Part shown: positions 1 through 14,107 of the stretch, piece after piece
How positions within the stretch are numbered: position 1 is the stretch's first letter
How the letters are laid out: every line of letters starts with the position of its first letter
Source: an uncultured Clostridia bacterium
GTDB lineage: Bacteria; Bacillota; Clostridia; TANB77; CAG-508
Direction: 5' to 3'
Assembly (NCBI GenBank): GCA_963558405.1
Contig: CAUWGC010000026.1
Location: forward strand, 1-14,107
DNA: 14,107 bases
Position numbers and translations under genes: made by a program
The notes under the pieces: model-generated
The model's input: the letters and a program-made list of their open reading frames with translations, nothing else
Told to the model about the DNA's origin: nothing
Databases searched by the model: none

Positions 1-118
1 TTCATAATTCTGTGGATAACATTCCGCAAATTTTCAAAAAATACCGAAACTTAAATTTTGTGCCACTTGCTTTTCCTAAAATTTTATGATATTATATTTT
101 TAGTTTTGTTTTTTGGAG

Positions 119-400
119 TTAGATATGCGCTTTTTGCATTTCCAACTCTTTTATTTTTATATTTGTATATTCTAATGCATTAAAATAATCTTTTTCTAAT
201 ATTGTAGCTTGTATATTTTGAAATGTTTCTCTTTCTTCATTTACAGCTCTGTAATATCTTTTCTCTAATAAATTACATATATCTATACAGATTTCGATAT
301 ATATAAGTATTTCATTTCTTATTGCATCATTATTATTTAATATCCACTGTAATTTTAAACTGATTTTTTTAAGATAAAATTCTATTAGTTCTTTTTCCAA
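119..400 (-). CDS. Hypothetical phage early protein (93 aa)
   Basis: TTG start preceded by AAGGAGG SD; co-oriented with the early operon; no recognisable motif. Confidence 0.75.
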   Translation of the reverse strand: MEKELIEFYLKKISLKLQWILNNNDAIRNEILIYIEICIDICNLLEKRYYRAVNEERETFQNIQATILEKDYFNALEYTNIKIKELEMQKAHI

Positions 401-417
401 CTAGATTTCCTCCTTTT

Positions 418-525
418 CTATAATAAATTAATTAATATATTGCTTATAGTTTCTGCTATATAACAACCTAATATTGGTAACCATATTAGGCTTGTCCCTA
501 ATAAAAATTCTTTAAACTTTTTCAT
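418..525 (-). CDS. Small hydrophobic peptide (35 aa, MKKFKEFLLGTSLIWLPILGCYIAETISNILINLL)
   Basis: Not in the ORF track. ATG at 525 with GAAAGGAG SD and TAG at 418-420; packs tightly between neighbouring genes. Confidence 0.7.
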   Translation of the reverse strand: MKKFKEFLLGTSLIWLPILGCYIAETISNILINLL

Positions 526-544
526 TAGTTAACTCCTTTCGTTT

Positions 545-667
545 CTATTTGACTTGTGTATAAATTAATGTAAGATAATCTTCTACTCTTTTTATTATTT
601 GTTTTTTTTGCTCTTCTGTTGGTGGATTTTTCACAATCACTTTAAACTTTCTTTCTTTATTTTTCAT
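545..667 (-). CDS. Small hypothetical phage protein (40 aa, MKNKERKFKVIVKNPPTEEQKKQIIKRVEDYLTLIYTQVK)
   Basis: Not in the ORF track. ATG at 667 with AGAGGTG SD; TAG at 545-547. Confidence 0.7.
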   Translation of the reverse strand: MKNKERKFKVIVKNPPTEEQKKQIIKRVEDYLTLIYTQVK

Positions 668-787
668 AACCAGCACCTCTCTATATTTTATTTAGAAAGT
701 TTGTACTAATTGATTATTTTTTTTGATATAATTACCTCGAAAGTGAGGTAGTATTATGACTGAATTTATTAGAAAATACTCATAAGG

Positions 788-985
788 TTAATAAGAGTCT
801 TGAAGATTAGTATCAATCTTTTTTAATGATGGTATAACTGCTTCGGAAACTTTTGCACCATCTATTTTTATTTTAGAAAACTCTTCTCTAATTTGTGCCA
901 ATTGTTGTTTTGTAAGTACCGTATCATTACTTTTGAACTCTTTTACAAAATCTTTTATTTCTTGTACACTTCCTTCTATTTTCAA
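788..985 (-). CDS. Hypothetical phage early protein (65 aa)
   Basis: TTG start with a purine-rich SD (AGGAGGGAGAAGG); co-oriented with the early operon. Confidence 0.75.
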   Translation of the reverse strand: MKIEGSVQEIKDFVKEFKSNDTVLTKQQLAQIREEFSKIKIDGAKVSEAVIPSLKKIDTNLQDSY

Positions 986-1045
986 CCTTCTCCCTCCTAA
1001 CTTACTTATTTTACATTCCTGCTATATTCTTAAAATTCAATATTT

Positions 1046-1144
1046 CTAACAATTATAGAAACGTAGAAATATAAATATTCCAAATAAGATTACGTTTATC
1101 CATTGAGTTATCACTAGTACTAGTAATAACTTTTTTCTGTCCAT
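1046..1144 (-). CDS. Small single-TM membrane peptide (32 aa, MDRKKLLLVLVITQWINVILFGIFIFLRFYNC)
   Basis: Not in the ORF track. ATG at 1144 with AAGGAGG SD; basic N-terminus followed by ~22 mostly hydrophobic residues. Confidence 0.7.
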   Translation of the reverse strand: MDRKKLLLVLVITQWINVILFGIFIFLRFYNC

Positions 1145-1164
1145 CAGCTTGCCTCCTTTATGCT

Positions 1165-1192
1165 TTGCTTTTATTTACCACTATGCTATAAT
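1165..1192 (+). promoter_or_regulatory. sigmaA-type promoter for the rightward gene at 1216
   Basis: TTGCTT (1165-1170), 16-bp spacer, TG-C-TATAAT (1184-1192). Confidence 0.65.
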
Positions 1193-1215
1193 TTTGTCGA
1201 AAGGTGGTGATTAAT

Positions 1216-1419
1216 TTGGATATTAAAAATATATCTTCTAAATCAGATGTACATAATCATCTTGAAAGTAATATCGAAGCCTATAAGGAAGAAATAAAAG
1301 ACATAATTAAAAACAGTAACTTTACTTCTTCGCAACAACAAGATTTAGAGAATATAGCTCGACAACATTACTATTCTTTACGTGACATCATTAAATCTAT
1401 TGAAATATTAAGTCAATAG
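1216..1419 (+). CDS. Hypothetical protein (67 aa), oriented opposite to the early operon
   Basis: The SD AAGGTGGTGA (1201-1210) favours TTG at 1216 over GTG at 1204. It has its own promoter, and its 3' end overlaps the convergent 1413-1652 gene by 7 nt. Confidence 0.75.
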   Translation: MDIKNISSKSDVHNHLESNIEAYKEEIKDIIKNSNFTSSQQQDLENIARQHYYSLRDIIKSIEILSQ

Positions 1420-1652
1420 TTATTAATAGTAGCAAGTTCTGTCCCATCAGAATTTGCTATTATTACTTTTGGCGGTCTAGCATTCCAATCTTCTGAAACT
1501 GCTTCTTTATATTTCTTTGCGATTTGTTTAGCCTTTAATAAATTTTTTTCATTAAATTCTTTACTAGAAAAATCTTCTTCTAATAATTCTTCTAGTAACT
1601 TTTTTCTTTGTTTCAAATGTTCTTTATTAATATTTTGAAATTTTATCTCCAT
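1413..1652 (-). CDS. Hypothetical phage early protein (79 aa)
   Basis: ATG with AAGGAGGT SD; first gene after cro. Confidence 0.75.
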   Translation of the reverse strand: MEIKFQNINKEHLKQRKKLLEELLEEDFSSKEFNEKNLLKAKQIAKKYKEAVSEDWNARPPKVIIANSDGTELATINNY

Positions 1653-1696
1653 CTCAGCTTACCTCCTTTGTTTTTAATGCACGTTTTGTGTTTTCA

Positions 1697-1882
1697 TTAT
1701 ATAAAAAAAATATTAACATCAAATTGAGGGTATTTTTTCTTGAGTTTAGTTAAAAATTCTCTACTTGGCTTTCTTGCTCCAGTTTCTAACTTGTCATATA
1801 ATGATTTTGAAATACCTATCGTATTTGCAAATTCTTGAGTAGTAAGGTTTAGGGAATTTCTAAAATCTTTTAATGCTTTCAT
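1697..1882 (-). CDS. Cro-like XRE HTH regulator (61 aa)
   Basis: HTH_3 pattern (LTTQEFANTIGISKSLYDKLETGARKPS). The AGGAGGTG SD supports ATG at 1882 rather than 1924. Divergent from the repressor gene. Confidence 0.9.
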   Translation of the reverse strand: MKALKDFRNSLNLTTQEFANTIGISKSLYDKLETGARKPSREFLTKLKKKYPQFDVNIFFI

Positions 1883-1912
1883 GTTTTCACCTCCTGCACA
1901 TTTCGTGTTTTT

Positions 1913-1941
1913 ATAATATAACACAGTTTGTGCTTTGTCAA
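1913..1941 (-). promoter_or_regulatory. Lytic (cro) sigmaA promoter
   Basis: TTGACA (1941-1936), 17 bp, TATTAT (1918-1913); the operator at 1921-1933 lies in the spacer. Confidence 0.8.
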
Positions 1942-1989
1942 TAGTTTTTTTAAAATTTTTTTATTTTTTTACACAAATTGTGTTTTATG

Positions 1990-2018
1990 TTTACTTAACA
2001 CAATTTGTGTGATAAAAT
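1990..2018 (+). promoter_or_regulatory. Lysogenic (repressor) sigmaA promoter
   Basis: TTTACT (1990-1995), 17 bp, TG-A-TAAAAT (2010-2018); the operator at 1998-2010 lies in the spacer. Confidence 0.7.
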
Positions 2019-2042
2019 AATAATAATTTAGGAGAGTGAATT

Positions 2043-2375
2043 ATGAAAGGAAATAGAATAAAAAAATTAAGAGAAGAAAAGAATATGAAACAAGAAGATT
2101 TAGCTAGGGTTCTTTCTATTTCTTCTAGTGCGGTAGGGATGTACGAAAGGGATGAGCGAGAGCCAAACGATGAAATAACACTTAAGCTGGCCGAATACTT
2201 TGGTGTATCAACAGACTATTTACTTGGCAAATCCGATATACGTAATCCAGAAGAACTCAATAAAGTACAATTTGCTAATGCAGGAGGACTTGATACAAAA
2301 GGACTTGATGAAGAAGATTTAGAAGAGTTACAAAGACAAATAGATTATATAAAGAAAATGAAAGGTAAAAAATAA
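2043..2375 (+). CDS. CI/ImmR-like XRE-family phage repressor (110 aa)
   Basis: N-terminal HTH_3 (IKKLREE...QEDLA...VGMYERDEREP...LAEYFGVSTDYLLG). The short C-terminal domain has no S24 peptidase, consistent with cleavage in trans by ImmA. Confidence 0.92.
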   Translation: MKGNRIKKLREEKNMKQEDLARVLSISSSAVGMYERDEREPNDEITLKLAEYFGVSTDYLLGKSDIRNPEELNKVQFANAGGLDTKGLDEEDLEELQRQIDYIKKMKGKK

Positions 2376-3047
2376 ATGGAAGAAGATAATAATATTCAAA
2401 GAAATAAAGCAATAATACATAAAGATAATTCATTAAATAGGCTTAATTTATCTTTTCTTAAGCATATTGATCTAGAAGAATATAAAACTAGTCATTTATT
2501 ATCTTATTGGATAAATGATTATGCTAATTATCATGATGAAGAAAAATCATTTGATACAGGTAAACTTATAACTTTTAAAAGAGGGACTATTGTCAAAGCT
2601 AATTTAGGATTTAATATTGGTCATGAATTAGGAGGTTTACATTATTGCATTGTTTTAACCAAAAATGATACCCCTAAAAATGGTACATTAAATGTAATTC
2701 CATTAACTTCTAAAGATAAAAAGTATAAAGGTTGTGTTAATTTAGGAAGTGAAATATATGAATTATTAATTCAGAATATACAAGCTGAACAAATATCTTT
2801 ACGTGAATTAGTAAAAGAATCTACAAATCAAGAAATTACTGATGAAATGCAAAGAAAATTAGAGTATATACACAAACTTAGTACAGAAGTAAAGAAAATG
2901 AAAAATAATAGTGTTGCATTATTAAATCAAATAACAACAATTAGTAAACAAAGACTATTTGATATTGATATATTACATAAAGTAAGATTATCTTCCTCTA
3001 CACTTGATATATTAGATAAAACAATTATTGATTTTTTCACAAAATAA
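2376..3047 (+). CDS. Long PemK/MazF-family endoribonuclease-like protein (223 aa), with no adjacent protein antitoxin gene
   Basis: PemK motifs FKRGTIVKANLGFNIGHELGGLHYCIVL, NVIPLTSK and ALLNQITTISKQRL, plus a ~65-aa N-terminal extension and a helical insert. The ATG directly follows the repressor TAA. Confidence 0.85.
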   Translation: MEEDNNIQRNKAIIHKDNSLNRLNLSFLKHIDLEEYKTSHLLSYWINDYANYHDEEKSFDTGKLITFKRGTIVKANLGFNIGHELGGLHYCIVLTKNDTPKNGTLNVIPLTSKDKKYKGCVNLGSEIYELLIQNIQAEQISLRELVKESTNQEITDEMQRKLEYIHKLSTEVKKMKNNSVALLNQITTISKQRLFDIDILHKVRLSSSTLDILDKTIIDFFTK

Positions 3048-3073
3048 AGAGGAGAGTTGCTATTGAACCCTCC
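3041..3073 (-). terminator. Intrinsic terminator of the predicted sRNA
   Basis: GGAGGGUU-CAAUAGC-AACUCUCC followed by a U-rich tail. The one non-Watson-Crick pair is G-U on the minus strand but A-C on the plus strand. Confidence 0.65.
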
Positions 3074-3117
3074 AAAGTGTTTCTGACGCCCGACTACTAT
3101 ATAGTAGTGGGAAAGTT
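3041..3117 (-). ncRNA. Predicted ~75-nt structured small RNA convergent on the PemK gene (candidate antitoxin)
   Basis: Perfect upstream promoter, 5' hairpin at 3089-3111, terminator hairpin at 3051-3073 followed by UCUUUAUUUU. No ORF; GC-richer than the flanks. Confidence 0.65.
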
Positions 3118-3123
3118 AAATAT

Positions 3124-3152
3124 ATTATAACAAATTATATTTAACTTGTCAA
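3124..3152 (-). promoter_or_regulatory. Perfect-consensus sigmaA promoter pointing back at the PemK gene
   Basis: TTGACA (3152-3147), 17 bp, TG-T-TATAAT (3132-3124). Confidence 0.85.
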
Positions 3153-3215
3153 ATATTTGACATTACCTATTATACTCATAAATGAAAAAAATATTACATA
3201 TAGAGGTATCTTATT

Positions 3216-3648
3216 GTGGAATTAATAGATTTAGAAAATGTAGCTAGTCGTGAAAAAATTTGTATCAGCAATTTTAAAATGAGAAAAACAAAGGCTAGAA
3301 TAATTAAATATAATAACACTTGTATTTTTATGGACTATTCCAAAATACATACTTACACAGAAGAAAAATGTTTATTAGCAGAAGAGCTTGGTCACTATTA
3401 TTATTCTGCTTACTATACATTAAATTCTGATAAAGAATTTATAGACAAACAAGAATATAAAGCAATGAAATGGAAATCGCTTATTTGTGTGTCTTTAAAT
3501 TCAATTTTAAGCTGTTTTTATAAACGGAATATATAATTTATCAGATATTGCAGAAGAATTAAATGTGGAACCTAATATGGTAGAATTTGCATACAATTAT
3601 TATAAAGATAATAACCAATTAAAGACAAATGCTTTTGATAGCATTTAA
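3216..3648 (+). pseudogene. ImmA/IrrE-family metallopeptidase (anti-repressor) split by a +1 frameshift near 3511-3533; ~143 aa if joined
   Basis: LAEELGHYY (HEXXH variant) and KQEYKA motifs. Frame 0 stops at 3536. The typical C-terminus GIYNLSDIAEELNVEPNMVEFAYNYY continues in the +1 frame to TAA at 3646-3648. Confidence 0.8.
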
Positions 3649-3697
3649 TTTTCAAGAACATTAACAAACAAAAGTTTTACATAAGGAGATGTTTTAT

Positions 3698-5140
3698 ATG
3701 TTACAAAGAGGAGCTTGCTATATTCGTGTATCTACAGATAATCAAACAGAATTTAGTCCAGACGCACAATTAAAAGCAATTCGTAAGTATGCTGAATTAA
3801 ACAATATTATTTTAAATGATGAATATATTTTTGTTGATGAAGGAATATCTGGAAGAAAAGCTGATAAAAGGCCTGCTTTTCAACAAATGATAAAAATTGC
3901 TAAATCTAAGCCCAAAAAATTTGACGTCATACTTGTACATAAATTTGATAGATTTGCTCGTTCGAGAGAGGACAGCGTAGTATATAAATCTCTACTAAAA
4001 AAAGAATGTGGTATTAAAGTTATTTCTACGACAGAAAGTATTGAAGATGATAAATTTTCTGTTATTCTTGAGGCTATGTTAGAAGCAATGGCAGAATATT
4101 ATTCTTTAAATTTAGCAGATGAAGTAAAAAAAGGAATGACTGAAAAAGCTACAAGAGGACAATATCAGTCTTCTCCACCATTTGGCTATAAAATGCAAAA
4201 TAAAGTACTTTCAATTATTGAAGATGAGGCTAATATTGTAAAATTTATATTTGAGAAATTTACTTCTAAAGAAATGAATGTATTGCAAATTGCTAAATAT
4301 GTAAATAACTTAGGTTATAAGACACATAGAGGAAATAAATTTGAAAACAGGACTATAGAATATATTTTAACAAATCCTGTTTATATTGGTTATGCTCGTT
4401 GGACTCCTTCTGGGAAAATAAAAAGAGGTCAAACTAATAAAGAAACCATAATAGAAAAATCTCAACATGAACCAATAATCTCTGAAGAATTATTTCAAAA
4501 AGCCCATGAAATAATCGAAAAAAACAAAATGATACATAAGAAATATTTTAAAAGCACAAATTCTAATTTACACTGGTTAAATGGATTAATTAAATGTAAA
4601 TTGTGTGGACATACACTAGTTAGAAATCAAAAAGATTTTTATCAATGTAATGGTTATACTAAAGGAAAATGCTTAAAAAGTCAGCTTGTAAAAATAACTA
4701 ATATAGAAAAGGCAATACTTGAACAAATAAAAAATGATTTTACAAATAATATAAATATTAATGTCAAATTTAATTTAGATAAAACTAATAATAATGACGT
4801 TTCTATTATATTATCTGAATTAGAAAAACTTAAAGAAAAAGAAGTTCGTATAAAAGATGCATATATTAATGGAATAGATTCTATAGAAGAATATAAAGAA
4901 AACAAGCAAAATTTAGAGAAACAAAATAAAATGTTAAATAATCAATTGATGAAACTACAAAGTAAAAAAGATATGAAAAAAAGAGAAACAATTATAAAAG
5001 AACAACTAAAAACAATTTACAATATTTTAACTGATGACAGAATCGATATGCAAAGAAAATATGAAGTATCACATATGATTATAGATAGAATAGATTTCAA
5101 TAGAGATGATGGCATTTTAGAGCTTACTTATAAAGTATAA
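3698..5140 (+). CDS. Large serine recombinase (phage integrase), 480 aa
   Basis: Catalytic YIRVSTDNQ, DEGISG...RPAFQQM, KFDRFARS; recombinase domain (PPFGY...ILTNPVYIG...HEPIIS); zinc ribbon CKLCG...C...C; coiled coil. The AAGGAG SD (3683-3688) favours ATG at 3698. Confidence 0.96.
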   Translation: MLQRGACYIRVSTDNQTEFSPDAQLKAIRKYAELNNIILNDEYIFVDEGISGRKADKRPAFQQMIKIAKSKPKKFDVILVHKFDRFARSREDSVVYKSLLKKECGIKVISTTESIEDDKFSVILEAMLEAMAEYYSLNLADEVKKGMTEKATRGQYQSSPPFGYKMQNKVLSIIEDEANIVKFIFEKFTSKEMNVLQIAKYVNNLGYKTHRGNKFENRTIEYILTNPVYIGYARWTPSGKIKRGQTNKETIIEKSQHEPIISEELFQKAHEIIEKNKMIHKKYFKSTNSNLHWLNGLIKCKLCGHTLVRNQKDFYQCNGYTKGKCLKSQLVKITNIEKAILEQIKNDFTNNININVKFNLDKTNNNDVSIILSELEKLKEKEVRIKDAYINGIDSIEEYKENKQNLEKQNKMLNNQLMKLQSKKDMKKRETIIKEQLKTIYNILTDDRIDMQRKYEVSHMIIDRIDFNRDDGILELTYKV

Positions 5141-5154
5141 TATCAAATGCCATC
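5108..5154. repeat. 47-bp imperfect palindrome at the prophage/host junction (att region)
   Basis: Perfect 10-bp outer arms GATGGCATTT (5108-5117) and AAATGCCATC (5145-5154); inner TACTT/AAGTA around 5131. Confidence 0.6.
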
Positions 5155-5250
5155 TGGACCACCATATTGTGAAATAATAAATTTAGCAAGTCTTGGATTT
5201 GGGCATTTTATTTTTACTGGATACTGTAATACTTTGTTATATGTCCACAT
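5143..5250 (-). pseudogene. cotJC: 5' fragment of the spore coat manganese catalase gene cotJC, interrupted by the prophage
   Basis: Translates to MWTYNKVLQYPVKIKCPNPRLAKFIISQYGGPDGI*, the CotJC N-terminus. Starts 2 nt after the cotJB stop and diverges where GGPDG should continue as E-L. Confidence 0.93.
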
Positions 5251-5252
5251 TA

Positions 5253-5633
5253 TTAGTTCCCCCTTTCCCATGGCCATGGTTCTTCCAACCATCTCCATTT
5301 ATTACATGGAAAATAGATTGTAAGTGGTCCATATACCTTTTGATATTTATCTTTTAAATCTTTTAATCTTTTGCAATATTCTCTATGCAAACAAAGAGCT
5401 TTGGGACTATCAGGATGTGTATCTAAATATTGTGCTAATTCTACAATAGCAAATTCTAATTCTCTTATTTGCATAAGCATTTCTTCTCTTACTCTATTTT
5501 TTTCTTGACATTCACATTCATCCATAATATTGGCATTTTCTATTTCTTGTACAGTATTATTTTGATTATTCATTGGCATAAAATTTCCACATCCACAGTT
5601 TCTATTTTCTTCTTTTTCATTATAGTTTAACAT
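5253..5633 (-). CDS. cotJB: Spore coat protein CotJB, with N-terminal extension
   Basis: ELEFAIVELAQYLDTHP...YQKVYGPLT...WRWLEEPWPWE signature; lies between cotJA and cotJC. Confidence 0.93.
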   Translation of the reverse strand: MLNYNEKEENRNCGCGNFMPMNNQNNTVQEIENANIMDECECQEKNRVREEMLMQIRELEFAIVELAQYLDTHPDSPKALCLHREYCKRLKDLKDKYQKVYGPLTIYFPCNKWRWLEEPWPWERGN

Positions 5634-5980
5634 TTATTACATCCCTCCCCAATTTTATTTGTTGCTCTTATATAAGCTATTTCTTCCATTGATTGACCTG
5701 GCATATATGGTCTTACTAATTCTGGAAATATAGTTCCCATTTTAAGTCCAACACAAGGCACAAATGTTGTATTTATTATTTGTTGTGGAACATAACTTTG
5801 AGCTAATATTGGTTCTGATGGAAAAGGATTAAACTCTTCTTCAAATCCACATTCGCAGTTTTTTTCTGAATTGTTGTAATTTGCTACATTTCCTACATTA
5901 TTGCATATTGTTTCTAAATACTCGTTATTACATGTTTTTTGACAATTACAATTACAACAACATTTCCATTGACAATTCAT
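5627..5980 (-). CDS. cotJA: Spore coat protein CotJA, with Cys-rich N-terminal extension
   Basis: LAQSYVPQQ...GLKMGTIFPELVRPY signature; AAGGAGG SD; overlaps cotJB by 7 nt. Confidence 0.9.
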   Translation of the reverse strand: MNCQWKCCCNCNCQKTCNNEYLETICNNVGNVANYNNSEKNCECGFEEEFNPFPSEPILAQSYVPQQIINTTFVPCVGLKMGTIFPELVRPYMPGQSMEEIAYIRATNKIGEGCNKC

Positions 5981-6014
5981 CTGATAATTCCTCCTTATTC
6001 ATAAGTTATATTAC

Positions 6015-6044
6015 ATAATATGAGTTTTTTTTTGTTTTGTTACA
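6015..6044 (-). promoter_or_regulatory. Mother-cell sporulation (sigmaK-like) promoter of cotJABC
   Basis: TGTAAC-N16-CATATTAT matches the AC-N16-CATA-N3-T pattern. Confidence 0.55.
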
Positions 6045-6071
6045 AGATTTATTTGTTATATGGTAATTTAC

Positions 6072-6113
6072 AATAAAAAAGAAGAAAACTGTCTTGTTTT
6101 CTTCTTTTTTATT
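6072..6113 (-). terminator. Intrinsic terminator (possibly bidirectional) after the PP2C-like gene
   Basis: 18-bp perfect inverted repeat AATAAAAAAGAAGAAAAC / GTTTTCTTCTTTTTTATT with a 6-nt loop. Confidence 0.75.
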
Positions 6114-6118
6114 AAATA

Positions 6119-6967
6119 TTATACTTTTTTGTAGATAATCAAAGTTCGCTCAGGTTCCTCATTTTCTAGTATTTCTGGATTATTTAAAAGTGTTTCTATT
6201 TTCTTTGTATCAGAAAATAAGTTTTCACATCCATCTGAATATGCACATATATACTTTACATTTTTTAAATCTATTTTATATACATCTATATAATATTCTG
6301 CATTTTTTTCTCCTGATAAAACTCCAAAAGTAATATCTTTTCCATTTTCCTTTTTACTAGGGTTATTCCTATATTCACTTCTTATTAATTTTCTATCTTT
6401 AGGATTTTCCCAATCAAAGTTATGCAATTTTTCGTAATCTTCAAACCATTTATGATTATTTATTGTTGTAAAAAGCAAATTATATTTTTCATCAAATAAA
6501 CTAATATGACAATCCCCTATTGAAAAAGCATATAAAGTATTATCTGTTATATATCCTCCAACAGAAACACAACAATAATAATCTTCTTTTAAGTAATCAA
6601 TACATCTACCTTTGTTTATATCAATTAGTTCATTATTTGATTTTACTATTGCTTGTTTTATTTTTTCTTCCGAAATGTCATTTTCTTTGATATTTGAAAT
6701 ATTGTTAACAAATGATTCTGCTATAATTTTTGCTGCTAAATATGCTCCACTTGGGTTTGGATATTCTTTTATAAATTCTATTGCTTCTTTTTCATTTTTA
6801 GGTTTTTTTATAGGATTACCATTAATATTATCTCTTGTCACTCCATCTGCTATACAAAAGCAATTATCCTTAATTTTATAATAGTCTTCTGAAACAGGTT
6901 TTAAACCATATTTCTTAAAAATAGATATATCATACATCTTATCATATACTAATTTGAATTCTTTCAT
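6119..6967 (-). CDS. PP2C/PPM-family phosphatase-like protein (282 aa)
   Basis: SED, CIADGV, SIGDC and AYSDG motifs in PP2C order. Confidence 0.75.
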   Translation of the reverse strand: MKEFKLVYDKMYDISIFKKYGLKPVSEDYYKIKDNCFCIADGVTRDNINGNPIKKPKNEKEAIEFIKEYPNPSGAYLAAKIIAESFVNNISNIKENDISEEKIKQAIVKSNNELIDINKGRCIDYLKEDYYCCVSVGGYITDNTLYAFSIGDCHISLFDEKYNLLFTTINNHKWFEDYEKLHNFDWENPKDRKLIRSEYRNNPSKKENGKDITFGVLSGEKNAEYYIDVYKIDLKNVKYICAYSDGCENLFSDTKKIETLLNNPEILENEEPERTLIIYKKV

Positions 6968-6975
6968 TTTTAAAA

Positions 6976-8013
6976 TTATCCTTCCACTTCTTTTTTTAGT
7001 ATTTTAAAAATTCTTTCTTCTGCAAATTTATTATCATATGATGTAAGTTTTATTTTTAATAATTCATCAACGTATTGCTCAAATTGATTGATGTTATCAC
7101 AAAATTTAATGTAGTCTAAATCTTTTAACCAATTATAAGATTCTATTATTTTATGATCCATGCTACTAAATACTATACAAGGAGTTTCTGTTATTGCAGA
7201 AAATATCATTCCATGTAATCTATCAGTTACTACAATTTTTGCTTCTTGAAATTCTTTAAATTTATCTTCCAATAACATTTCTCTGTTTTGGTCTGTTATA
7301 TTTGTAATTTCTACTTTATTATTTAAATTAAAAATGTGAAATCCATCATACTTATTTAACATTTCTTGTCTTAATTCTGGTATATTGCTATCTAAATTCA
7401 TGTCAGATAACTTATATTTTTTTACTTTTTCTTCAAGGACTTTTTTTATTATTACTTCATCATTATTATTTAATACTTTTTCTTTATCAACTCTAAGTAA
7501 TAACAAAGCTCCTTCTCTATTATTTTTATTGCTTGTCCTTTTTAATGTCATTACAATATCTGGAGTAAGATATACTTTTGCATTTTTAAAATTTTCTTTT
7601 ATAAAATTGTATGATTTATTTTCTCTTGCTAATATTACTAAGTGTTGGTGTTTATTATATATTTCCTTTGAAGTTTCTAGTTCTTTTTTACCCTTTTCAG
7701 TATTTGAAAAATATGCAGTTTGAGGAAACATAATAATTTTATTGTTTGGAAATAACTTTATTACTTCTCTTCTTCCATATTCTGGTCTGTCATAAGTATC
7801 TCCAAAATTACCTCCACCATGTAACATAATAATATCATCATCATTTATATATTTTTTTACTTTACCAATACATAAACTTAATAATTCCTCGTGAACTTGA
7901 TACAATTCAAACTCTGGAAAATATTTTTTTAACATTTCTTTTTCCGCCATAAAAATTGCTTGGTCACCTAAATTTCCATGATGAGGTTCTCCAATAATTA
8001 TTATCTTTTTCAT
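6976..8013 (-). CDS. Polysaccharide pyruvyl transferase (EpsI-like), 345 aa
   Basis: GNLGDQAI, HGGGNFGD, FPQT, ARE..SY, PDIV and VVTDRLHGMIF motifs. The GGAGGA SD supports ATG at 8013. Confidence 0.9.
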   Translation of the reverse strand: MKKIIIIGEPHHGNLGDQAIFMAEKEMLKKYFPEFELYQVHEELLSLCIGKVKKYINDDDIIMLHGGGNFGDTYDRPEYGRREVIKLFPNNKIIMFPQTAYFSNTEKGKKELETSKEIYNKHQHLVILARENKSYNFIKENFKNAKVYLTPDIVMTLKRTSNKNNREGALLLLRVDKEKVLNNNDEVIIKKVLEEKVKKYKLSDMNLDSNIPELRQEMLNKYDGFHIFNLNNKVEITNITDQNREMLLEDKFKEFQEAKIVVTDRLHGMIFSAITETPCIVFSSMDHKIIESYNWLKDLDYIKFCDNINQFEQYVDELLKIKLTSYDNKFAEERIFKILKKEVEG

Positions 8014-8031
8014 ATCTTCCTCCATTATTTG

Positions 8032-9948
8032 TTATTTTATAATTGTATCTATTTGTTTTAAATAATCGTTATCCTTTAACTCTTGAGTTTGATTTCCTCC
8101 CTCAACCTCGTTAGTATATTTATTTTCTATTCTTTCACGTTTTGAAACATTTCTTCTATACCATTCATATTCTATATCTATATGACCCATATCTAAAGCT
8201 TGATAACCTTCTTTAGCTAAGTCATAAGCTAATACTGTAGCTGTTGGTCCTAATGCCAATATAATAAGTACATCCTTAGGTTCTTGTTTTAATCTATTTA
8301 TAATTTCATCATATTTATTAAAAGCATCTTCTGCTGGACATAATACTCTTCTTACAGATTTGCATCCTTCTAATAAATCATTTCCAACTCCAACCCCTGT
8401 TTGTTCACCTTCACAAACTACTACGTCTTTATCTTTCCATATTTCTTTTATTATAGAAAAATACTTGCCACATTCACTTCTATCCTTATGTCTTATATAT
8501 GGTCTAGTTAAATTAGCTGTGCAATATTCCATGTTATCATTTATATATTTAAGCCATGTTTTTCTGGTTTTATACATGTTATCAATCCAAAATGCTTCAC
8601 TTTCAAAAGTTAAATTTTCAAATTTATTTATAACATCTGGTATTCCAATTAAACAGAATTCTTGATTATCTGCTAAAATACCTTTTAATCTTTCAGCTAA
8701 TTTTGAATTATGTTCTTGAAATTTTAAATCTTTATCAATGATTATATCAAGTTCTCCATCTCCAAAACGAGCAATGGATTTTCCTTCTTTTATTTTTATT
8801 AAAGATTCTTCTATTCCTAATATTGTTATATTACTTTTTTCCATTTCTTTAAGTAGTTCTTCTTTTTTATGTAAAAGTTCTATATCCATTTTAGTTTCCT
8901 CCATTTCTCTATATGTATCTGCATTTGGTTTAGACATTTTTTCTTTTAATTCCTTTGGTAATATTTTTCTTACTTGATTTAAAATTTCGCAATATCTTAA
9001 AGCTTGAGCATAATCTTTTTCCTCTATTGCATTTATAATGTATTGAACAGATTTAAATATAGTTGGTATTTTTAAATCATTACTAAGCATATAAAACCAT
9101 TTCATCTTATCTAATACTTCAATTCTTTCTTCTAGTGTTAATCTTGTTGAATCTATAAATTTATATAGTATATAATTCATACTTTTAGCATAAAAAAATC
9201 TATAAAAATCTAAACGATTATTCTCTTTAAAATTTTCGTATATAATTTTATACGCTTTATTTATTCCCATAAAATATTCTTTTGAACAGCTATTAGAAAT
9301 AGAATCAGAATATCTCATTCTATAATTGTACATTATTTTTGGCATATAATATACTTGTGAAGATTTTATAAAGCAATATGTTGTGAAAATAGCATCTTCT
9401 GCTGGAACTCTTTCAACAAACTTCATTTTTAATTCTTCCAAAAAACTTCTTCTAAAAATTTTGTTCCAAACAGTTGAATTCATTATAAAGAAGGAATTTT
9501 TGTAATCTTCTATAGAAAGTTTAAATTCCTTGTATTTATCTTGATCAAAGACAGGTTTTTCCCATTTAGTACCGTCTTCATCTATATATATATAATTTCC
9601 AACAACATATTCTGCATTTGTCTTTTCTATTTCTTTATAAAAATTTTCACAAGCATCAAGTTCAAATTTATCGTCAGAATCTAAGAACATTATATATTTT
9701 CCTGTTGCTAAATCTAATCCAGTATTTCTAGCTCCTGATAGTCCTTTATTTTTTTGATGAACTACAGTAATTCTATTGTCTTTTTTTGCATATTCTTCAC
9801 ATATATCACCTGAAGAATCTTTAGATTCATCATCTATTACAATAATTTCTAAATTTTTATAAGTTTGATTAATAACTGAATCTAATGCTTCTCCCACATA
9901 TTTTTCTACATTGTATACTGGTATAATAACTGTTATTTTATCTGTCAT
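8032..9948 (-). CDS. Fusion of a GT2 glycosyltransferase and a C-terminal GT-D fold (DUF1792) glycosyltransferase, 638 aa
   Basis: N-terminal IIPVYNVEKY...ARNTG...FLDSDD; C-terminal SIARFGDGE, TRPY, GVGNDL, LALGPTATVLAYDL and DMGHIDIEYEW. The GGAGG SD supports ATG at 9948. Confidence 0.9.
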   Translation of the reverse strand: MTDKITVIIPVYNVEKYVGEALDSVINQTYKNLEIIVIDDESKDSSGDICEEYAKKDNRITVVHQKNKGLSGARNTGLDLATGKYIMFLDSDDKFELDACENFYKEIEKTNAEYVVGNYIYIDEDGTKWEKPVFDQDKYKEFKLSIEDYKNSFFIMNSTVWNKIFRRSFLEELKMKFVERVPAEDAIFTTYCFIKSSQVYYMPKIMYNYRMRYSDSISNSCSKEYFMGINKAYKIIYENFKENNRLDFYRFFYAKSMNYILYKFIDSTRLTLEERIEVLDKMKWFYMLSNDLKIPTIFKSVQYIINAIEEKDYAQALRYCEILNQVRKILPKELKEKMSKPNADTYREMEETKMDIELLHKKEELLKEMEKSNITILGIEESLIKIKEGKSIARFGDGELDIIIDKDLKFQEHNSKLAERLKGILADNQEFCLIGIPDVINKFENLTFESEAFWIDNMYKTRKTWLKYINDNMEYCTANLTRPYIRHKDRSECGKYFSIIKEIWKDKDVVVCEGEQTGVGVGNDLLEGCKSVRRVLCPAEDAFNKYDEIINRLKQEPKDVLIILALGPTATVLAYDLAKEGYQALDMGHIDIEYEWYRRNVSKRERIENKYTNEVEGGNQTQELKDNDYLKQIDTIIK

Positions 9949-9979
9949 ATTTGTTCCTCCCTTTAAACGCTCTATAGCT

Positions 9980-10008
9980 ATTATACCATAGAGCAAAGCT
10001 TCTTTCAA
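9980..10008 (-). promoter_or_regulatory. sigmaA promoter of the glycosyltransferase operon
   Basis: TTGAAA (10008-10003), 17 bp, TG-G-TATAAT (9988-9980). The TTG used as start by the ORF track is this -35 element. Confidence 0.75.
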
Positions 10009-10077
10009 GCATTCTACTTATTCTTAATAATTAACATAAGGTTGTATATCCAAAATTTTCGATTTTTCCTATATAAT

Positions 10078-10120
10078 AAAAAAGAGGTTTCTATAACTTA
10101 GAAGTGAAACCTCTCTTTTT
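10078..10120 (-). terminator. Intrinsic terminator after the pyk-HAD gene pair
   Basis: AGAGGTTTC (10083-10091) / GAAACCTCT (10106-10114) stem flanked by A and T tracts. Confidence 0.65.
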
Positions 10121-10903
10121 TCATCTTTCTATATTATCTATTATACTTTGCTCTATATCGTATAAATTAATTAAGTGTCTTTGCATTATATTATGATACT
10201 CATTAAATCTTTGCCTAAAATCATTTAAATATAATCCATATTGTGATTTTTTATCAAATAATTTTTCTAATTCTTGATATACCATTTTCAAAGTAGGATC
10301 TTTACTATAGTCTTCTATAGTATGTAATATTTCTAAACTTTGTTCTTTAGAAAAATTGCTTTGTTTTTTTCCAAAACATCTTCCCATTTGATAAATAGAT
10401 GTTGGCTCTACCATTGTAGGAAGTAAAAAGAAATTTACTTCTTTATTTGGAGCATCATCTGTTTTATATAATTCTTGTAGTTTTAGAAACTCTTTTGGAT
10501 TATTTTCTATAAAATAGATTTGTTTGTAATCTAGCAAAGTAACAGGTTTATTATTGTTTTTATATATTTGATATTCTCTTGAATTTAAATACATATTAGA
10601 TTTTGCAATATTATTTTCAATATTTATTACATGGTCAAAAGGATTTTTTATTTGCTTTTCTTGCATCTTCTTAAAAAACATTTCTGTAATACTATTGTTA
10701 TCCGAAGTCCATAAAATCACATTAAATTCTTGATGTTGTTCTTTAAGCTTAGAAATTTTTTCTAAAAATTCTACACTACCTGGTCTTAGGAACATCATGT
10801 AACTTCCATTTTTTGAACAACATCCTCCATCTGCTAAAGTTCCACCTAAATCTATTACGATTACTTTTTCTTTTTGTACTGTTGAATCCTTCACAAAAGG
10901 CAC
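10121..10903 (-). CDS. NIF/FCP1-like HAD-superfamily protein with degenerate motifs; start codon uncertain
   Basis: VIVIDLGGTL, LRPGSVEFL, ILWTS and FIENNP occur in HAD motif order. Confidence 0.6.
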   Translation of the reverse strand: MPFVKDSTVQKEKVIVIDLGGTLADGGCCSKNGSYMMFLRPGSVEFLEKISKLKEQHQEFNVILWTSDNNSITEMFFKKMQEKQIKNPFDHVINIENNIAKSNMYLNSREYQIYKNNNKPVTLLDYKQIYFIENNPKEFLKLQELYKTDDAPNKEVNFFLLPTMVEPTSIYQMGRCFGKKQSNFSKEQSLEILHTIEDYSKDPTLKMVYQELEKLFDKKSQYGLYLNDFRQRFNEYHNIMQRHLINLYDIEQSIIDNIER

Positions 10904-10910
10904 ATCCTTT

Positions 10911-12350
10911 TTATAGTTTTAAAACTCCTCCAATACTTCTGTTAACTTCATCTTTGATTGTTTCATCTTCTTTTAAAATAGAAGCTCCACCAGCAATAAC
11001 AACTGTATCTCCTTCTGCTAATTTTCCTTGTTCCTTTAATTTCTCAATTCCTATTTTTAGCATATGATTTACAGTATCACCTTTCTTTAATAAAAATGGA
11101 TGTATGTTCCAATATAGTGCTAATTGACGATATGTACGTTCATTACTTGTAAATGCATAGATTGGACATGCTGGTAAATAACTTGCAATTATTCTTGGAG
11201 TATCTCCACATTCTGTATATGCAATAATAGCTTTTGCATCCATTTGCATTGCTGTAAAGCAAATAGAATAATTTAAATTAAATTCATAATTTAATGATTT
11301 TAAATCATATTCTCTATTTCTAAATCTCTTCCAATATTTTATGTTTGATTCAATAGCATCTGCTATTTTACTCATTGTTTTAACACATTCTACTGGATAT
11401 TTACCCATTGCACTTTCTCCAGATAGCATTATTGCCCCTGTTCCATCAAAAATTGCATTCGCAACATCACTTACTTCTGCTCTTGTAGGTCTTGGATTTT
11501 CTGTCATACTCTCTAGCATTTGTGTAGCTGTTATAACAATTTTTCCTTCTCTATAGCATGATTTAATAAATTGTTTTTGTACGATAGGCACTTGTTCTAA
11601 TGGTATTTCCACTCCCATATCTCCACGTGCTACCATAATTCCATCAGAAACACTTAAAATTTCTTTTTGGTTTTCTATTCCTTCTTGGTTTTCTATTTTA
11701 GCAATTATTTTTATTTTATCTCCGCCGTTTTCATTTAATACTTTACGTATATCTAAAACGTCTTGTTTTCTTCTTACAAATGAAGCAGCTATATAGTCAA
11801 AATCTGCTTTTACAGCATCTTTTAAATCTTGAATATCTTTTTCTTTTAAACTAGGTAAATTTAATTTTATACCAGGTACATTAACTGTTTTTCTATTTCC
11901 TAATTTAGCTCCATGTGTTATAACACAATGAATATCTTTGTCTTCTACTTTTTCTACTTCTAATTCTATTGAACCATCATCAATTAAAATTTTTGTTCCC
12001 TGTGTTACATCTTTATAAAGTTCTTTATAAGTAACAGATACTTTATTTTTATCTCCTTCGATATCTTCATTTACAAGTACAAATTTTTCTCCTGTTACTA
12101 AAAATACAGGTGCTTCTTTTAATTTTCCAGTTCTTATTTCTGGTCCTTGTGTATCTAATAATAACGCAACTGGAAGTCCAAGTTCTTCTCTTGCTTGTTT
12201 TACTGCATTTATAAATTTTTCTTGTTCTTTATATGAACCATGTGAAAAATTAATTCTAGCAACATTCATTCCTGCTTTAATTAATTCCTTTAAAGTTTCT
12301 ACCTCTCCACTTGCTGGACCTATTGTACATACTATTTTTGTCTTTCTCAA
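10911..12350 (-). CDS. pyk: Pyruvate kinase (479 aa)
   Basis: RKTKIVCTIGPAS, ARINFSHG, DTQGPEIRTG, IAKIEN, MVARGDMGVE, ATQMLESM and PTRAEVSDVANA motifs; TTG start with SD. Confidence 0.98.
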   Translation of the reverse strand: MRKTKIVCTIGPASGEVETLKELIKAGMNVARINFSHGSYKEQEKFINAVKQAREELGLPVALLLDTQGPEIRTGKLKEAPVFLVTGEKFVLVNEDIEGDKNKVSVTYKELYKDVTQGTKILIDDGSIELEVEKVEDKDIHCVITHGAKLGNRKTVNVPGIKLNLPSLKEKDIQDLKDAVKADFDYIAASFVRRKQDVLDIRKVLNENGGDKIKIIAKIENQEGIENQKEILSVSDGIMVARGDMGVEIPLEQVPIVQKQFIKSCYREGKIVITATQMLESMTENPRPTRAEVSDVANAIFDGTGAIMLSGESAMGKYPVECVKTMSKIADAIESNIKYWKRFRNREYDLKSLNYEFNLNYSICFTAMQMDAKAIIAYTECGDTPRIIASYLPACPIYAFTSNERTYRQLALYWNIHPFLLKKGDTVNHMLKIGIEKLKEQGKLAEGDTVVIAGGASILKEDETIKDEVNRSIGGVLKL

Positions 12351-12416
12351 TGTAATTCCCCCTTACTTATTTACAACAATATACGATTTATTTCGACATT
12401 TGTACTCTAAGACCCT

Positions 12417-12446
12417 ATTATACCACACTTTTTCTAATATGTTCAA
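12417..12446 (-). promoter_or_regulatory. sigmaA promoter of pyk
   Basis: TTGAAC (12446-12441), 18 bp, TG-G-TATAAT (12425-12417). Confidence 0.6.
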
Positions 12447-12466
12447 CCTATATTTTTATTTTTTCT

Positions 12467-13168
12467 TTATTTTTCTTCTAATTCTCTTTTTTTATTATCT
12501 GTAATACAACTTTTTGGTTCTTTAAAACTTAAATACCAACTCATTCCATTTTTATTTTCTTCAATATACTTATTTCGTTCTTCTAATTCTATAAATGTTT
12601 TAGGAACAGGTATAATTACAGGATTACAAGGAACCCAATTTGCAGGTATAGCTACTTTTTCTCTATCTGATAATTGAAGAGCTTCTATGGTTCTTAATAT
12701 TTCTGGAATACATCTTCCAACTTGCATAGGATAAACTAAAATAGTTCTTACAATACCTTTATCATCTATAATAAACACATTTCTTACTGTTTCTGTGTTA
12801 CTAATATCCGATGCAATCATACCATATTTTCTAGCTATTACTCCATTTTGATCTGCTATAATAGGAAATGGAATTCTTATTCCAGTTTTGCAAAAAATAT
12901 CATAAATCCATGCAAGATGTGATGCATTGCTATCAACACTAAGTCCTATCAAGCATGTATTTAATCTTTCAAAATACTGTGATGCCTTTGCAAATGCTAT
13001 TATCTCTGTTGTACATACGGGGGTAAAATCTCCTGGATGCGAAAATAAAACTATCCATTTTCCTTTATAATTATCTAAAGATATTTGTCCCATAGTAGTT
13101 ATTGCTTCAAAATCCGGGGCTTTTTGCCCTATTCTTACATTTCCATTCATCATTAATTCATAATCCAT
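12467..13168 (-). CDS. Peroxiredoxin, Prx6-type (233 aa)
   Basis: FSHPGDFTPVCTTE active site, GLSVD, FPIIAD, VRNVFIID, YP...GR...EILR and PANW motifs. Confidence 0.93.
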   Translation of the reverse strand: MDYELMMNGNVRIGQKAPDFEAITTMGQISLDNYKGKWIVLFSHPGDFTPVCTTEIIAFAKASQYFERLNTCLIGLSVDSNASHLAWIYDIFCKTGIRIPFPIIADQNGVIARKYGMIASDISNTETVRNVFIIDDKGIVRTILVYPMQVGRCIPEILRTIEALQLSDREKVAIPANWVPCNPVIIPVPKTFIELEERNKYIEENKNGMSWYLSFKEPKSCITDNKKRELEEK

Positions 13169-13212
13169 ATATAAACTCCTTTCAAGCTATAAAGCTCGTT
13201 TGATATTTATAT

Positions 13213-13243
13213 ATTTTATGAAACATAATGTTTAATGGTTACA
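13213..13243 (-). promoter_or_regulatory. sigmaK-like promoter of the peroxiredoxin gene
   Basis: TGTAAC-N17-CATAAAAT, the same architecture as upstream of cotJA. Confidence 0.5.
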
Positions 13244-13280
13244 TTATTATTGTTACTTTAATTAAAAACTATTTAACTTA

Positions 13281-13667
13281 TTATTTTTTTATATTATTTG
13301 AACTTCTCCATTCTTTTTTTAATTCTTTTTCTTCTCTCTCATCCGCATATTCTTGTTCTACATCTATTAAATATATTTTATCTTTAAATTTCCCCTTCCT
13401 ACTACTTTTTATTTTTCTAGCTTTTTCAACATCTTCTGATGAAATATTTTTTAAATGCATTATTGCACTAATAACCTCTACTAAATCAGCAAGTTCCTCA
13501 ACTGAATGTTCTTCTATAAATTCATGAGCTTCTTCAAATATTTTTTTATCAAGCTCTTGCAAATATTCCTCATTATTTAATATTCTATAATTTGCTTTTC
13601 TGCCTTCTATTTTATTAATTTCTTCTGGTATTTTATCTCTAACTAATTTATTATATACATATTTCAT
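13281..13667 (-). CDS. MazG-like / PRA-PH-family nucleoside triphosphate pyrophosphohydrolase (128 aa)
   Basis: YNKLVRDKIP, EEAHEF, EELADLVEV and RKGKF motifs. Confidence 0.85.
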   Translation of the reverse strand: MKYVYNKLVRDKIPEEINKIEGRKANYRILNNEEYLQELDKKIFEEAHEFIEEHSVEELADLVEVISAIMHLKNISSEDVEKARKIKSSRKGKFKDKIYLIDVEQEYADEREEKELKKEWRSSNNIKK

Positions 13668-13689
13668 AATATCACTCCAATCCTCTTAT

Positions 13690-13718
13690 ATTGTAAAACA
13701 TTTGTTCTTATTTGTCAA
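13690..13718 (-). promoter_or_regulatory. sigmaA promoter with a LexA-like box in its spacer
   Basis: TTGACA (13718-13713), 17 bp, TACAAT (13695-13690); GAAC-AAAT-GTTT at 13707-13696. Confidence 0.7.
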
Positions 13719-13812
13719 TTATCTTTATTATTTTAATTTTATATATAATATGTTAATTAGTATTTGCATAAAGGCTAGTCCTATTGAAATTACTATAATT
13801 TTTATCTTATCA

Positions 13813-14050
13813 ATCGAGTAGAGGATAATTCTTAATGAATTTCTCCCCTCTCACACCACCACTCAAGCGGTTCTCGCAAATGGCGGTTCAATTTGTTATC
13901 GAATTTAGAACTCGGTTCGCTGCTTTTTCACTTTTAACAAGTATTATACAATCATCTGCATATCTTACAAAGTTTAGTCCTCTTGCTTCAAGTTCTTTAT
14001 CTAGTTCATTTAACATTATATTGCTTAGTAATGGGCTTAAGTTTCCTCCT
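13813..14050 (-). mobile_element. Group II intron remnant (class C / IIC type): RT fragment joined to domains V-VI and the 3' splice end
   Basis: DV-like GAACCGCC...GAACCGC...GGTGGTGTGAGAGG (13889-13847), a DVI stem and the terminal CTACTCGAT ending at 13813. Confidence 0.88.
13888..14049 (-). pseudogene. Group II intron reverse transcriptase fragment (RT4-RT5 region, 53 aa)
   Basis: GGNLSPLLSNIMLNELDKELEARGLNFVRYADDCIILVKSEKAANRVLNSITN*; no start codon, and an in-frame stop lies upstream at 14080-14082. Confidence 0.9.
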
Positions 14051-14053
14051 ATT

Positions 14054-14107
14054 TTATGGAAAGCTTTCCATAATATTGGTTATAGAAACTTTATTATTAT
14101 GGAAAGT
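14054..14107. repeat. dif-like 28-bp site (14063-14090) with extra half-site copies
   Basis: GCTTTCCATAA-TATTGG-TTATAGAAACT has an 11-6-11 layout. There is also a 20-bp palindrome TTATGGAAAGCTTTCCATAA (14054-14073) and another TTATGGAAAGT (14097-14107). Confidence 0.55.

Follow-up and report, generated by a model that had tools for sequence, protein, structure and literature searches.

A MazF/PemK-fold nuclease gene of Clostridia prophages and its adjoining small RNA gene, a candidate RNA antitoxin

The window analyzed here is a 14,107-nucleotide (nt) stretch of an uncultured Clostridia bacterium (contig CAUWGC010000026.1, positions 1 to 14,107), which carries a prophage gene for an enlarged MazF/PemK-fold nuclease of 223 amino acids (aa). 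Beside the 3' end of this gene, on the opposite strand, we find a predicted small RNA gene. Judged from its sequence, the locus reads as a two-part module, comprising the nuclease gene and a strongly promoted, terminator-ended RNA gene of ~77 nt. The coordinates of these and the neighboring features are collected in Table 1.

The original prediction, made from the letters alone, had placed a PemK-fold gene at this position, and the assignment holds. The protein matches Pfam PemK_toxin over residues 68–140 (E 5.8e-15, 55.9 bits against a cut-off of 23.1). PemK_toxin is the only Pfam family above its cut-off, and the ToxN/AbiQ, CptN and TenpN families are not matched. A look-up in the ESM Atlas returned the PemK/MazF family and nothing further, and PADLOC gave no match. 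The supposed orphan is not an isolated oddity, since it matches PHROG 1412 across residues 17–222 (E 2.1e-45) and belongs to that large, known phage family. At E <= 1e-3, 1215 of 1395 candidate proteins fall into the family, and clustering at 50% identity yields 814 representatives at E <= 1e-10. PHROG 1412 is probably the published Sma defence family.

A profile built from 68 relatives of the nuclease and searched against the PDB aligns in two pieces to B. subtilis MazF/EndoA (4mdx, 1ne8, 4me7; E about 3e-5) and to S. aureus MazF. Residues 66–119 correspond to MazF 3–57, and residues 178–221 to MazF 69–108. The protein thus consists of a 65-aa N-terminal extension, the N-terminal half of MazF, an insertion of ~55 aa and the C-terminal half of MazF. 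Among 17 diverse members, the length of the central insertion is highly variable, and E56, G70, G78, N80, E84, H89, P109, S112 and K191 are invariant. In MazF, the arginine of the GxRP loop has a catalytic role. The 'GGVRP' of MazF is aligned with 'GGLHY' here, and H89 sits at the position of this arginine.

Just downstream of the nuclease gene, the minus strand holds a perfect TTGACA-17-TGnTATAAT promoter, which serves no open reading frame (ORF) of at least 40 aa in the ORF list, as had been claimed. We scanned positions 1600–5400 for promoters and terminators and compared both with shuffles. The total of 29 promoter-like sites is no excess over shuffled sequence (28.6 +/- 4.7), and the small RNA promoter, with its TG extension, is the sole site among them to score 12/12. 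The sole terminator-like site in the interval (1 found; 0.7 +/- 0.8 expected) is the minus-strand terminator hairpin of Table 1. Its tail, UCUUUAUUUU, extends to 3041 and covers the nuclease stop codon (3045–3047) and 4 coding bases. The A-rich final codons and stop of the nuclease gene (..ACA AAA TAA) double as the U tail of the RNA terminator on the other strand (3041–3050). After the nuclease gene, no plus-strand terminator was found in the scan.

The fold of 3117–3041 on the minus strand (-20.2 kcal/mol, z -3.46) reproduces the build proposed at first, in which a 5' hairpin and a linker of ~15 nt are followed by a terminator ending at the toxin stop. In the 5' hairpin, a bulged C lies ahead of the closing GGG. 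The plus strand of the region folds as well (-20.9 kcal/mol, z -3.77), and we rejected folding energy as evidence of strand, both strands folding alike. The RNA is assigned to the minus strand because of the promoter, the U tail and a G-U pair, which would be an A-C mismatch on the plus strand; the last of these arguments is already contained in the original prediction. No tandem repeats were found near the nuclease gene, the RNA being single-copy with one recognition hairpin. The suggested comparison with Rfam gave no match for the RNA, or anywhere in the window, at E <= 1 among 4227 covariance models.

We also notice a perfect 16-base-pair palindrome at 3147–3162, TGTCAAATATTTGACA. One of its strands contributes the -35 box to the RNA promoter, and the opposite strand also reads TTGACA. 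A possible divergent promoter lies within and beside it, and the palindrome may be a divergent promoter or an operator. Relatives retain TTGTCAA..TTGACA with variable spacing and ~45 conserved nt past it.

Table 1. Features of the nuclease–RNA locus and its surroundings in the window (HTH, helix-turn-helix)
Feature	Position	Strand	Basis or remarks
Enlarged MazF/PemK-fold protein gene, 223 aa, Sma-like, PHROG 1412	2376..3047	+	Pfam, PHROG, PDB profile
Predicted small RNA, ~77 nt	3041..3117	-	hairpin 3111-3089, linker 3088-3074 (15 nt), terminator hairpin 3073-3051, U tail 3050-3041
Small RNA promoter	3124..3152	-	-35 TTGACA 3152-3147, 17-nt spacer, TGt-TATAAT 3132-3124 (-10 TATAAT 3129-3124)
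Possible divergent promoter TTGTCA-16-TATTAT	3146..3173	+	10/12; back to back with the RNA promoter, toward the ImmA-like and recombinase genes
CI/RstR-like HTH repressor	2043..2375	+	HTH_3 1.2e-16; RstR family 68.9 bits, under its cut-off of 80
Cro-like HTH gene	1697..1924	-	HTH_3 6.6e-8; divergent from the repressor, marks the lysogeny switch; matching layout in phage records
ImmA/M78-like gene, frameshifted	3216-3536 plus 3538-3648	+	split near 3536, tail continues in another frame
Large serine recombinase, prophage edge	3689..5140	+	Resolvase, Recombinase and Zn_ribbon_recom domains; context, outside the gene–RNA pair
Manganese-catalase/CotJC gene remnant, first 34 residues	5143-5298	-	adjoins the large serine recombinase
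cotJB	5253-5633	-	upstream of the cotJC remnant
cotJA	5627-5980	-	upstream of the cotJC remnant

The downstream regions of homologs, in which the original prediction had proposed to look for a conserved promoter and a covarying RNA, contain both. For this comparison, 219 loci were confirmed in species genomes and we took the best 80, which are all gut-type Clostridia assemblies with a protein identity of 49–75%. The layout of the small RNA promoter is conserved beside the homologs. A covariance model, R1, built from 65 distinct RNAs, finds exactly one strong match per locus (52–106 bits, E <= 1.3e-8), directly 3' of the gene, in the window (3041–3120, minus strand; 75.8 bits, E 6.3e-14) and in 76/80 loci. 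In the four loci without a match (L023, L068, L070 and L081), the contig ends inside the gene or within 40 nt of it, and the linkage is therefore 76/76 among loci with enough sequence. The next-best matches (E 0.27–0.56) are noise. Because these sequences seeded the model, the R1 scores are partly given by construction, and the independent facts are the position of the RNA and its pair statistics.

On a MAFFT alignment of the 65 distinct RNAs that was unfitted to structure, and with the paired positions supplied by hand, 97.0% of cells pair and 15 of the 19 pairs show changes on both sides. None of 500 shuffles attains the observed values, and slid controls pair at 42–63%. The structure was supplied by hand after RNAalifold had recovered from this alignment the terminator only, because hairpin 1 varies in stem length. 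Two kinds of unpaired position are invariant, namely the C bulged out ahead of the closing G-C pairs and several bases of the linker. We are confident that this is a genuine RNA gene with a functional tie to the nuclease gene.

The orientation of the RNA varies. In 6 Clostridia loci, it lies on the nuclease gene's own strand, with a consensus promoter placed past the stop codon. A profile made from 60 convergent RNAs only finds 5/6 of these same-strand RNAs on the plus strand (E 1.2e-9 to 3.1e-4; that of L072 is missed), and the same profile has no match in Staphylococcus/Streptococcus or other lineages. A quick protein tree, built without rows L013, L070, L068 and L081, puts the same-strand loci into one group (support 85) and the convergent loci into a neighboring one (support 81), with outgroups that are themselves same-strand. 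Because of this grouping, the tree implies that the orientation changed by a single apparent inversion, with the pair persisting afterwards. The overlap with the gene varies too. Among 71 convergent cases, the RNA match overlaps the gene end by 4–9 nt in 26, ends 4–16 nt past the stop in 41 and lies 68–151 nt away in 4. Thus neither the orientation of the RNA nor its 3' overlap is conserved.

These data bear on the idea that the RNA controls expression of the nuclease, whether as an antisense RNA on the 3' end of its mRNA, through collision of convergent transcription, or by pairing elsewhere in a type I-like manner. In the window and 25 other convergent loci, the terminator tail of the RNA does cover the last 4–9 gene bases. 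Moreover, as no plus-strand terminator follows the nuclease gene, its transcript may extend across the RNA gene and base-pair with the RNA. On the other hand, homologous RNAs lie on the gene's strand in 6 loci and analogous ones in 20/20 loci of other lineages, and the overlap is absent in 45/71 convergent cases, with a gap of up to 151 nt. This variation disfavors antisense action on the 3' untranslated region (UTR) and convergent transcription, both of which had been proposed at the outset. As for pairing elsewhere, the RNA has no excess complementarity to the 5' region around the translation start of the nuclease gene (cognate duplex -17.4 versus -18.2 kcal/mol for shuffled RNA, n = 59), in a rough test whose scope ended short of the coding body. 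We therefore regard control of expression as improbable, and the orientation data point to an RNA that acts in trans.

We then looked for other candidate partners among the neighbors of the gene. Across the Clostridia loci, the nearest upstream ORF varies in strand, size and distance (0 to more than 350 nt). In the closest relatives it encodes an HTH_3/HTH protein, an S24 repressor, an ArsP permease, a DUF6076 protein, a bacterial PH domain, or a protein of no family. In L030, the stretch in common with other loci is confined to the gene, ~110 nt ahead of it and ~170 nt after the stop codon. Since the upstream neighbors vary and this shared stretch is short, the conserved unit consists of the gene, the RNA and their promoters. 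No conserved antitoxin gene of the MazE/PemI type stands beside the nuclease among the Clostridia loci compared. The RNA is the only conserved partner of the protein family.

The gene and RNA together look like a cassette of ~970 nt between unrelated flanks (L030 3870–4845; L071 3851–3885 / 4833–4867). A TGTATAA(A/T)TT(A/T)TAACA-like sequence occurs, inverted, near both cassette ends, and the repeat search did not single it out in this AT-rich DNA. We do not claim terminal inverted repeats: L071 has a 35-nt pair that is 74% complementary, and nothing comparable stood among the top pairs of three other loci. In L078, a FuFi-1 RNA (Rfam RF02986, 90.2 bits) was located at 1707–1987 on the plus strand, ~2 kb upstream of the nuclease gene.

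In the window itself, the stop codon of the HTH repressor directly abuts the ATG of the nuclease gene. The claim that the nuclease has no MazE/PemI-like partner is therefore sound for the family as a whole and needs qualifying here, where an HTH gene touches the ATG without being a conserved neighbor. This repressor could be a protein antitoxin forming a type II pair with the nuclease, the RNA being incidental. Besides the abutting genes, an arrangement in which several Streptococcus phages also place the nuclease gene directly after the repressor, this idea can draw on the domain order read from the sequence, with an N-terminal HTH domain and then an acidic C-terminal tail, and on NCBIfam similarities to HTH antitoxin families, which are weak and all far under their cut-offs. 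Against it, the HTH gene stands divergent from a Cro-like gene across operator-like repeats, as phage repressors do. Furthermore, the upstream neighbor varies even in the closest relatives, and the conserved unit excludes the HTH gene. The abutting repressor is a local arrangement, seen also in L005 and the Streptococcus phages just mentioned, and we consider a repressor antitoxin highly improbable.

The window protein matches 110 phage records (62 of Staphylococcus, 48 of Streptococcus), in which the gene lies nearly always between repressor and integrase. We inspected 17 Staphylococcus/Streptococcus phage or satellite loci, three of them satellites, together with 3 plasmid loci. In 17/17 phage and satellite loci, a same-strand promoter, its -35 box starting -22 to +13 nt from the stop, is followed by 1–3 short hairpins and then a strong terminator. 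Promoters scoring at least 10/12 occur in 13/17 of these windows versus 42/1128 control windows of the same loci. The hairpins are often two units with like loops and different, complementary (covarying) stems, for example between phiMR25 and BM31. Pneumococcal phages carry GGAG-UUUAG-CUCC and GGAU-UUUAG-AUCC units, with AUAA after each. Two tandem hairpin units are present in Staphylococcus, Streptococcus and Natranaerobius relatives. The single-copy, convergent RNA that was described for the window is thus true of one clade, while in other lineages two or three hairpins stand in tandem on the strand of the gene, nearer the type III pattern.

R1 detected no RNA on the Staphylococcus, Streptococcus and plasmid loci (best E 0.19, noise level). 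A scan of 19 related loci against Rfam gave no family at the position of the small RNA, and its only matches were to two other elements, Spy779816 and FuFi-1. A GCC..hairpin..GCGGUCA look common to the Bacillus plasmid and Clostridia RNAs is an impression only. In Streptococcus phages, the known small RNA Spy779816 lies on the opposite strand between the new small RNA and the integrase (L001 3322–3408, minus strand; L096 2263–2349, minus strand), and weaker matches to it occur in L085, L088, L089, L095 and L097. In the S. aureus phage phiST9-C (L093 1324–2028), the homolog is broken into two ORFs, and the RNA after it is down to a single hairpin plus terminator; gene and RNA may be decaying together.

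Homologs also occur in 16 plasmid records, one hit (H110) being on an Acinetobacter plasmid. The 3 plasmid homologs inspected come from small plasmids of Bacillus, Sutcliffiella and Natranaerobius; in each, the gene lies directly after rep and is followed on the same strand by promoter, hairpins and terminator, with no integrase. These plasmid homologs are shorter (~180–200 aa) and have no annotated antitoxin (L098 1183–1782, L099 1108–1668, L100 1114–1656). Their position after rep on such plasmids suggests that the protein–RNA pair is used for plasmid stabilization.

The placement data help to weigh whether the protein is a self-contained defence and the RNA accessory or separate, serving integrase or lysogeny control, insulation of transcripts at the end of the lysogeny module, or the targeting of host or phage mRNA. 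Sma is described as one gene that is active from a plasmid (available text of PMC13660305 and PMC12409344). In addition, the RNA of the phages sits between nuclease gene and integrase, and the RNA promoter of the window adjoins, in opposite orientation, the possible promoter directed at the ImmA-like and recombinase genes. However, most Clostridia loci have no integrase adjoining the gene and RNA and their flanks differ, yet the ~970-nt unit stays together. The plasmid homologs keep the layout without an integrase, and the linkage holds in every locus with enough sequence. A single-protein defence with a separate RNA is therefore unlikely in our judgment.

The RNA could also act positively, as a cofactor, sensor or specificity element of the nuclease, for instance a scaffold remodelled by a phage product or a decoy for an anti-defence protein. 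The linkage and covariation data apply equally to such a role. The conserved unpaired bases, namely the bulged C and the A/G positions of the linker, point to specific recognition and leave the sign of the effect undefined. On the other side, the placement next to rep on small plasmids fits the logic of an antidote better, and we know of no MazF-fold enzyme that needs an RNA cofactor. We consider a positive role quite unlikely.

As originally supposed, the nuclease gene belongs to a prophage. The region is the lysogeny end, with repressor, Cro-like gene and recombinase. The repressor and Cro-like genes face each other across an operator-like spacer, and between them, at 1920–2011, an operator-like ACACA-N3/4-TGTGT occurs three times (~1921–1933, 1971–1983 and 1998–2010). 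Because the repressor stop abuts the nuclease ATG, a lysogen of this prophage probably transcribes the two genes together. A gap of 168 nt separates the nuclease gene from the ImmA/M78-like gene, whose product has EELGH at the expected HExxH site and, for this reason, is probably inactive. On the far side of the recombinase come the first 34 residues of CotJC, followed by cotJB and cotJA. By this order, the prophage seems to interrupt cotJC, a sporulation gene of a spore-former, and it resembles a sporulation-gene intervening element.

We propose that the RNA binds the nuclease in trans, through the hairpin with its closing G-C pairs and conserved bulged C and through the conserved single-stranded linker. 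The bound RNA would hold the nuclease inactive, like a type III RNA antitoxin. Phage infection or loss of the element would lower the RNA supply, or a phage product would displace the RNA, and the nuclease would be freed. Once free, it would cleave RNA and arrest growth or the development of the phage. With its gene probably read along with that of the repressor in the lysogen, the nuclease would be a prophage-borne defence or addiction module. The consensus strength of the RNA promoter is as expected for a labile antidote made in excess. We hold with moderate confidence that the RNA is a type III-like, protein-binding antitoxin acting in trans.

Several points weigh against this reading. The main counterweight is the description of Sma as a single-gene system working from a plasmid (PMC13660305, PMC12409344, in the text available); should the Sma clone have had no RNA gene, the protein is tolerated on its own. 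The chemistry of the enzyme is not assured, as the aligned sequences put an invariant histidine at the position of the catalytic arginine. Since the protein tree places the change in orientation at one event, it amounts to a lone evolutionary trial rather than many. The RNAs of other lineages resemble the Clostridia RNA, as far as their sequences tell, in place and build only, and a same-strand RNA could be read as a 3' UTR. With its one recognition hairpin and no tandem repeats, the single-copy RNA of the window differs from classical type III antitoxins. Finally, transcription of the RNA, its binding to the protein, the toxicity of the protein and the defence role are things that we infer.

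How an antitoxin-less, MazF-like nuclease stays harmless in a lysogen is a question to which the universally linked small RNA offers a concrete, testable answer for the Sma family. A phage-defence family described as a single protein may be a protein–RNA pair. In a broader form of this idea, which we consider evenly balanced, the MazF/PemK-fold nucleases of Bacillota prophages, satellites and small plasmids, Sma included, would be a hidden class of protein–RNA toxin–antitoxin systems, the antidote RNA being independently transcribed from either strand. The antidote RNA could also be the part that senses phage takeover. If the RNA is an antidote, type III-like RNA-antitoxin logic extends to the true MazF/PemK family, such antidotes need not be upstream repeat arrays, and defence-finding pipelines that score proteins only miss an essential RNA part. 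The family is found in prophages of medically relevant Staphylococcus and Streptococcus and may shape phage sensitivity there.

Among known systems, MazEF and PemIK share with the window protein the toxin fold and sequence family, and the window protein retains the threonine/serine and lysine positions of the MazF core. In contrast, there is no conserved MazE/PemI-type gene in the operon here, and the protein has double their size and differs by an N-terminal extension, a central insertion and a histidine for the catalytic arginine.

Type III systems combine an endoribonuclease related to Kid/MazF with a small structured RNA and no protein antitoxin, the toxin being neutralized by direct binding of the RNA. 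They (ToxIN/AbiQ-antiQ, CptIN, TenpIN) occur on phages and plasmids and have a role in abortive infection, according to the available text of PMC12283969. The MazF-type protein described here is likewise placed beside a structured RNA, on phages and plasmids, with no conserved protein antitoxin, and the two tandem hairpin units of the Staphylococcus, Streptococcus and Natranaerobius relatives add to the likeness. Unlike type III toxins, the window protein matches PemK_toxin and not ToxN. Moreover, its RNA lies downstream with a promoter and terminator of its own, on either strand, whereas a type III antitoxin is an upstream repeat array followed by a terminator, and no Rfam antitoxin family matches the RNA.

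The Streptococcus and Staphylococcus phage homologs owe their annotation to similarity with a 'Pathogenicity island SaPIn2' protein, and we take SaPIn2 to be island vSa-alpha, the home of the FS_Sma gene of RN4220. The window protein is a single MazF-like ORF with a variable central region in a lysogeny region, as expected of the Sma type. In the available text of the Sma reports, Sma is a one-gene system that encodes a MazF-like protein and works from a plasmid clone (PMC13660305, PMC12409344). It was discovered on SaPIpT1028, its expression falls in the lysogenic state, and DefenseFinder covers it with the model FS_Sma (PMC12409344, PMC13660305, PMC12829572). A 221-aa relative of Sma in vSa-alpha of RN4220 differs mainly in the length of the central region (PMC13660305, in the part available). 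As far as these texts go, both proteins are MazF-like, reach or exceed ~220 aa and have a center of variable length between conserved N- and C-terminal parts, and both are encoded in the lysogeny region of Bacillota phages or satellites. On this description and annotation, we think that the window family is the Sma family; searches from the phiMR25 and 315.1 homologs did not bring up the 221-aa S. aureus protein of PMC13660305. The difference is that Sma is described, in the same texts, as a single protein with no partner, whereas a small RNA gene stands beside every member of the window family examined.

Full-text literature searches returned no report linking Sma or PemK-like phage proteins to a small RNA. 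The available main text of PMC5737381 does not mention pemK; its supplement lists toxin-linked RNA motifs and may bear on prior description. Besides the type III systems, the closest precedent is AbiF-RCd22 of a C. difficile prophage, in which, according to the text available, a toxic defence protein is neutralized by direct binding of an adjacent non-coding RNA (PMC12373285 / bioRxiv 10.1101/2025.04.15.648962). RCd22 has two conserved motifs and acts in cis and in trans (PMC12373285). As described there, the protein belongs to Abi_2/AbiD/F and not to MazF/PemK, and the RNA motif is another one. What the two loci share is a prophage-borne protein with an adjacent non-coding RNA in Clostridia.

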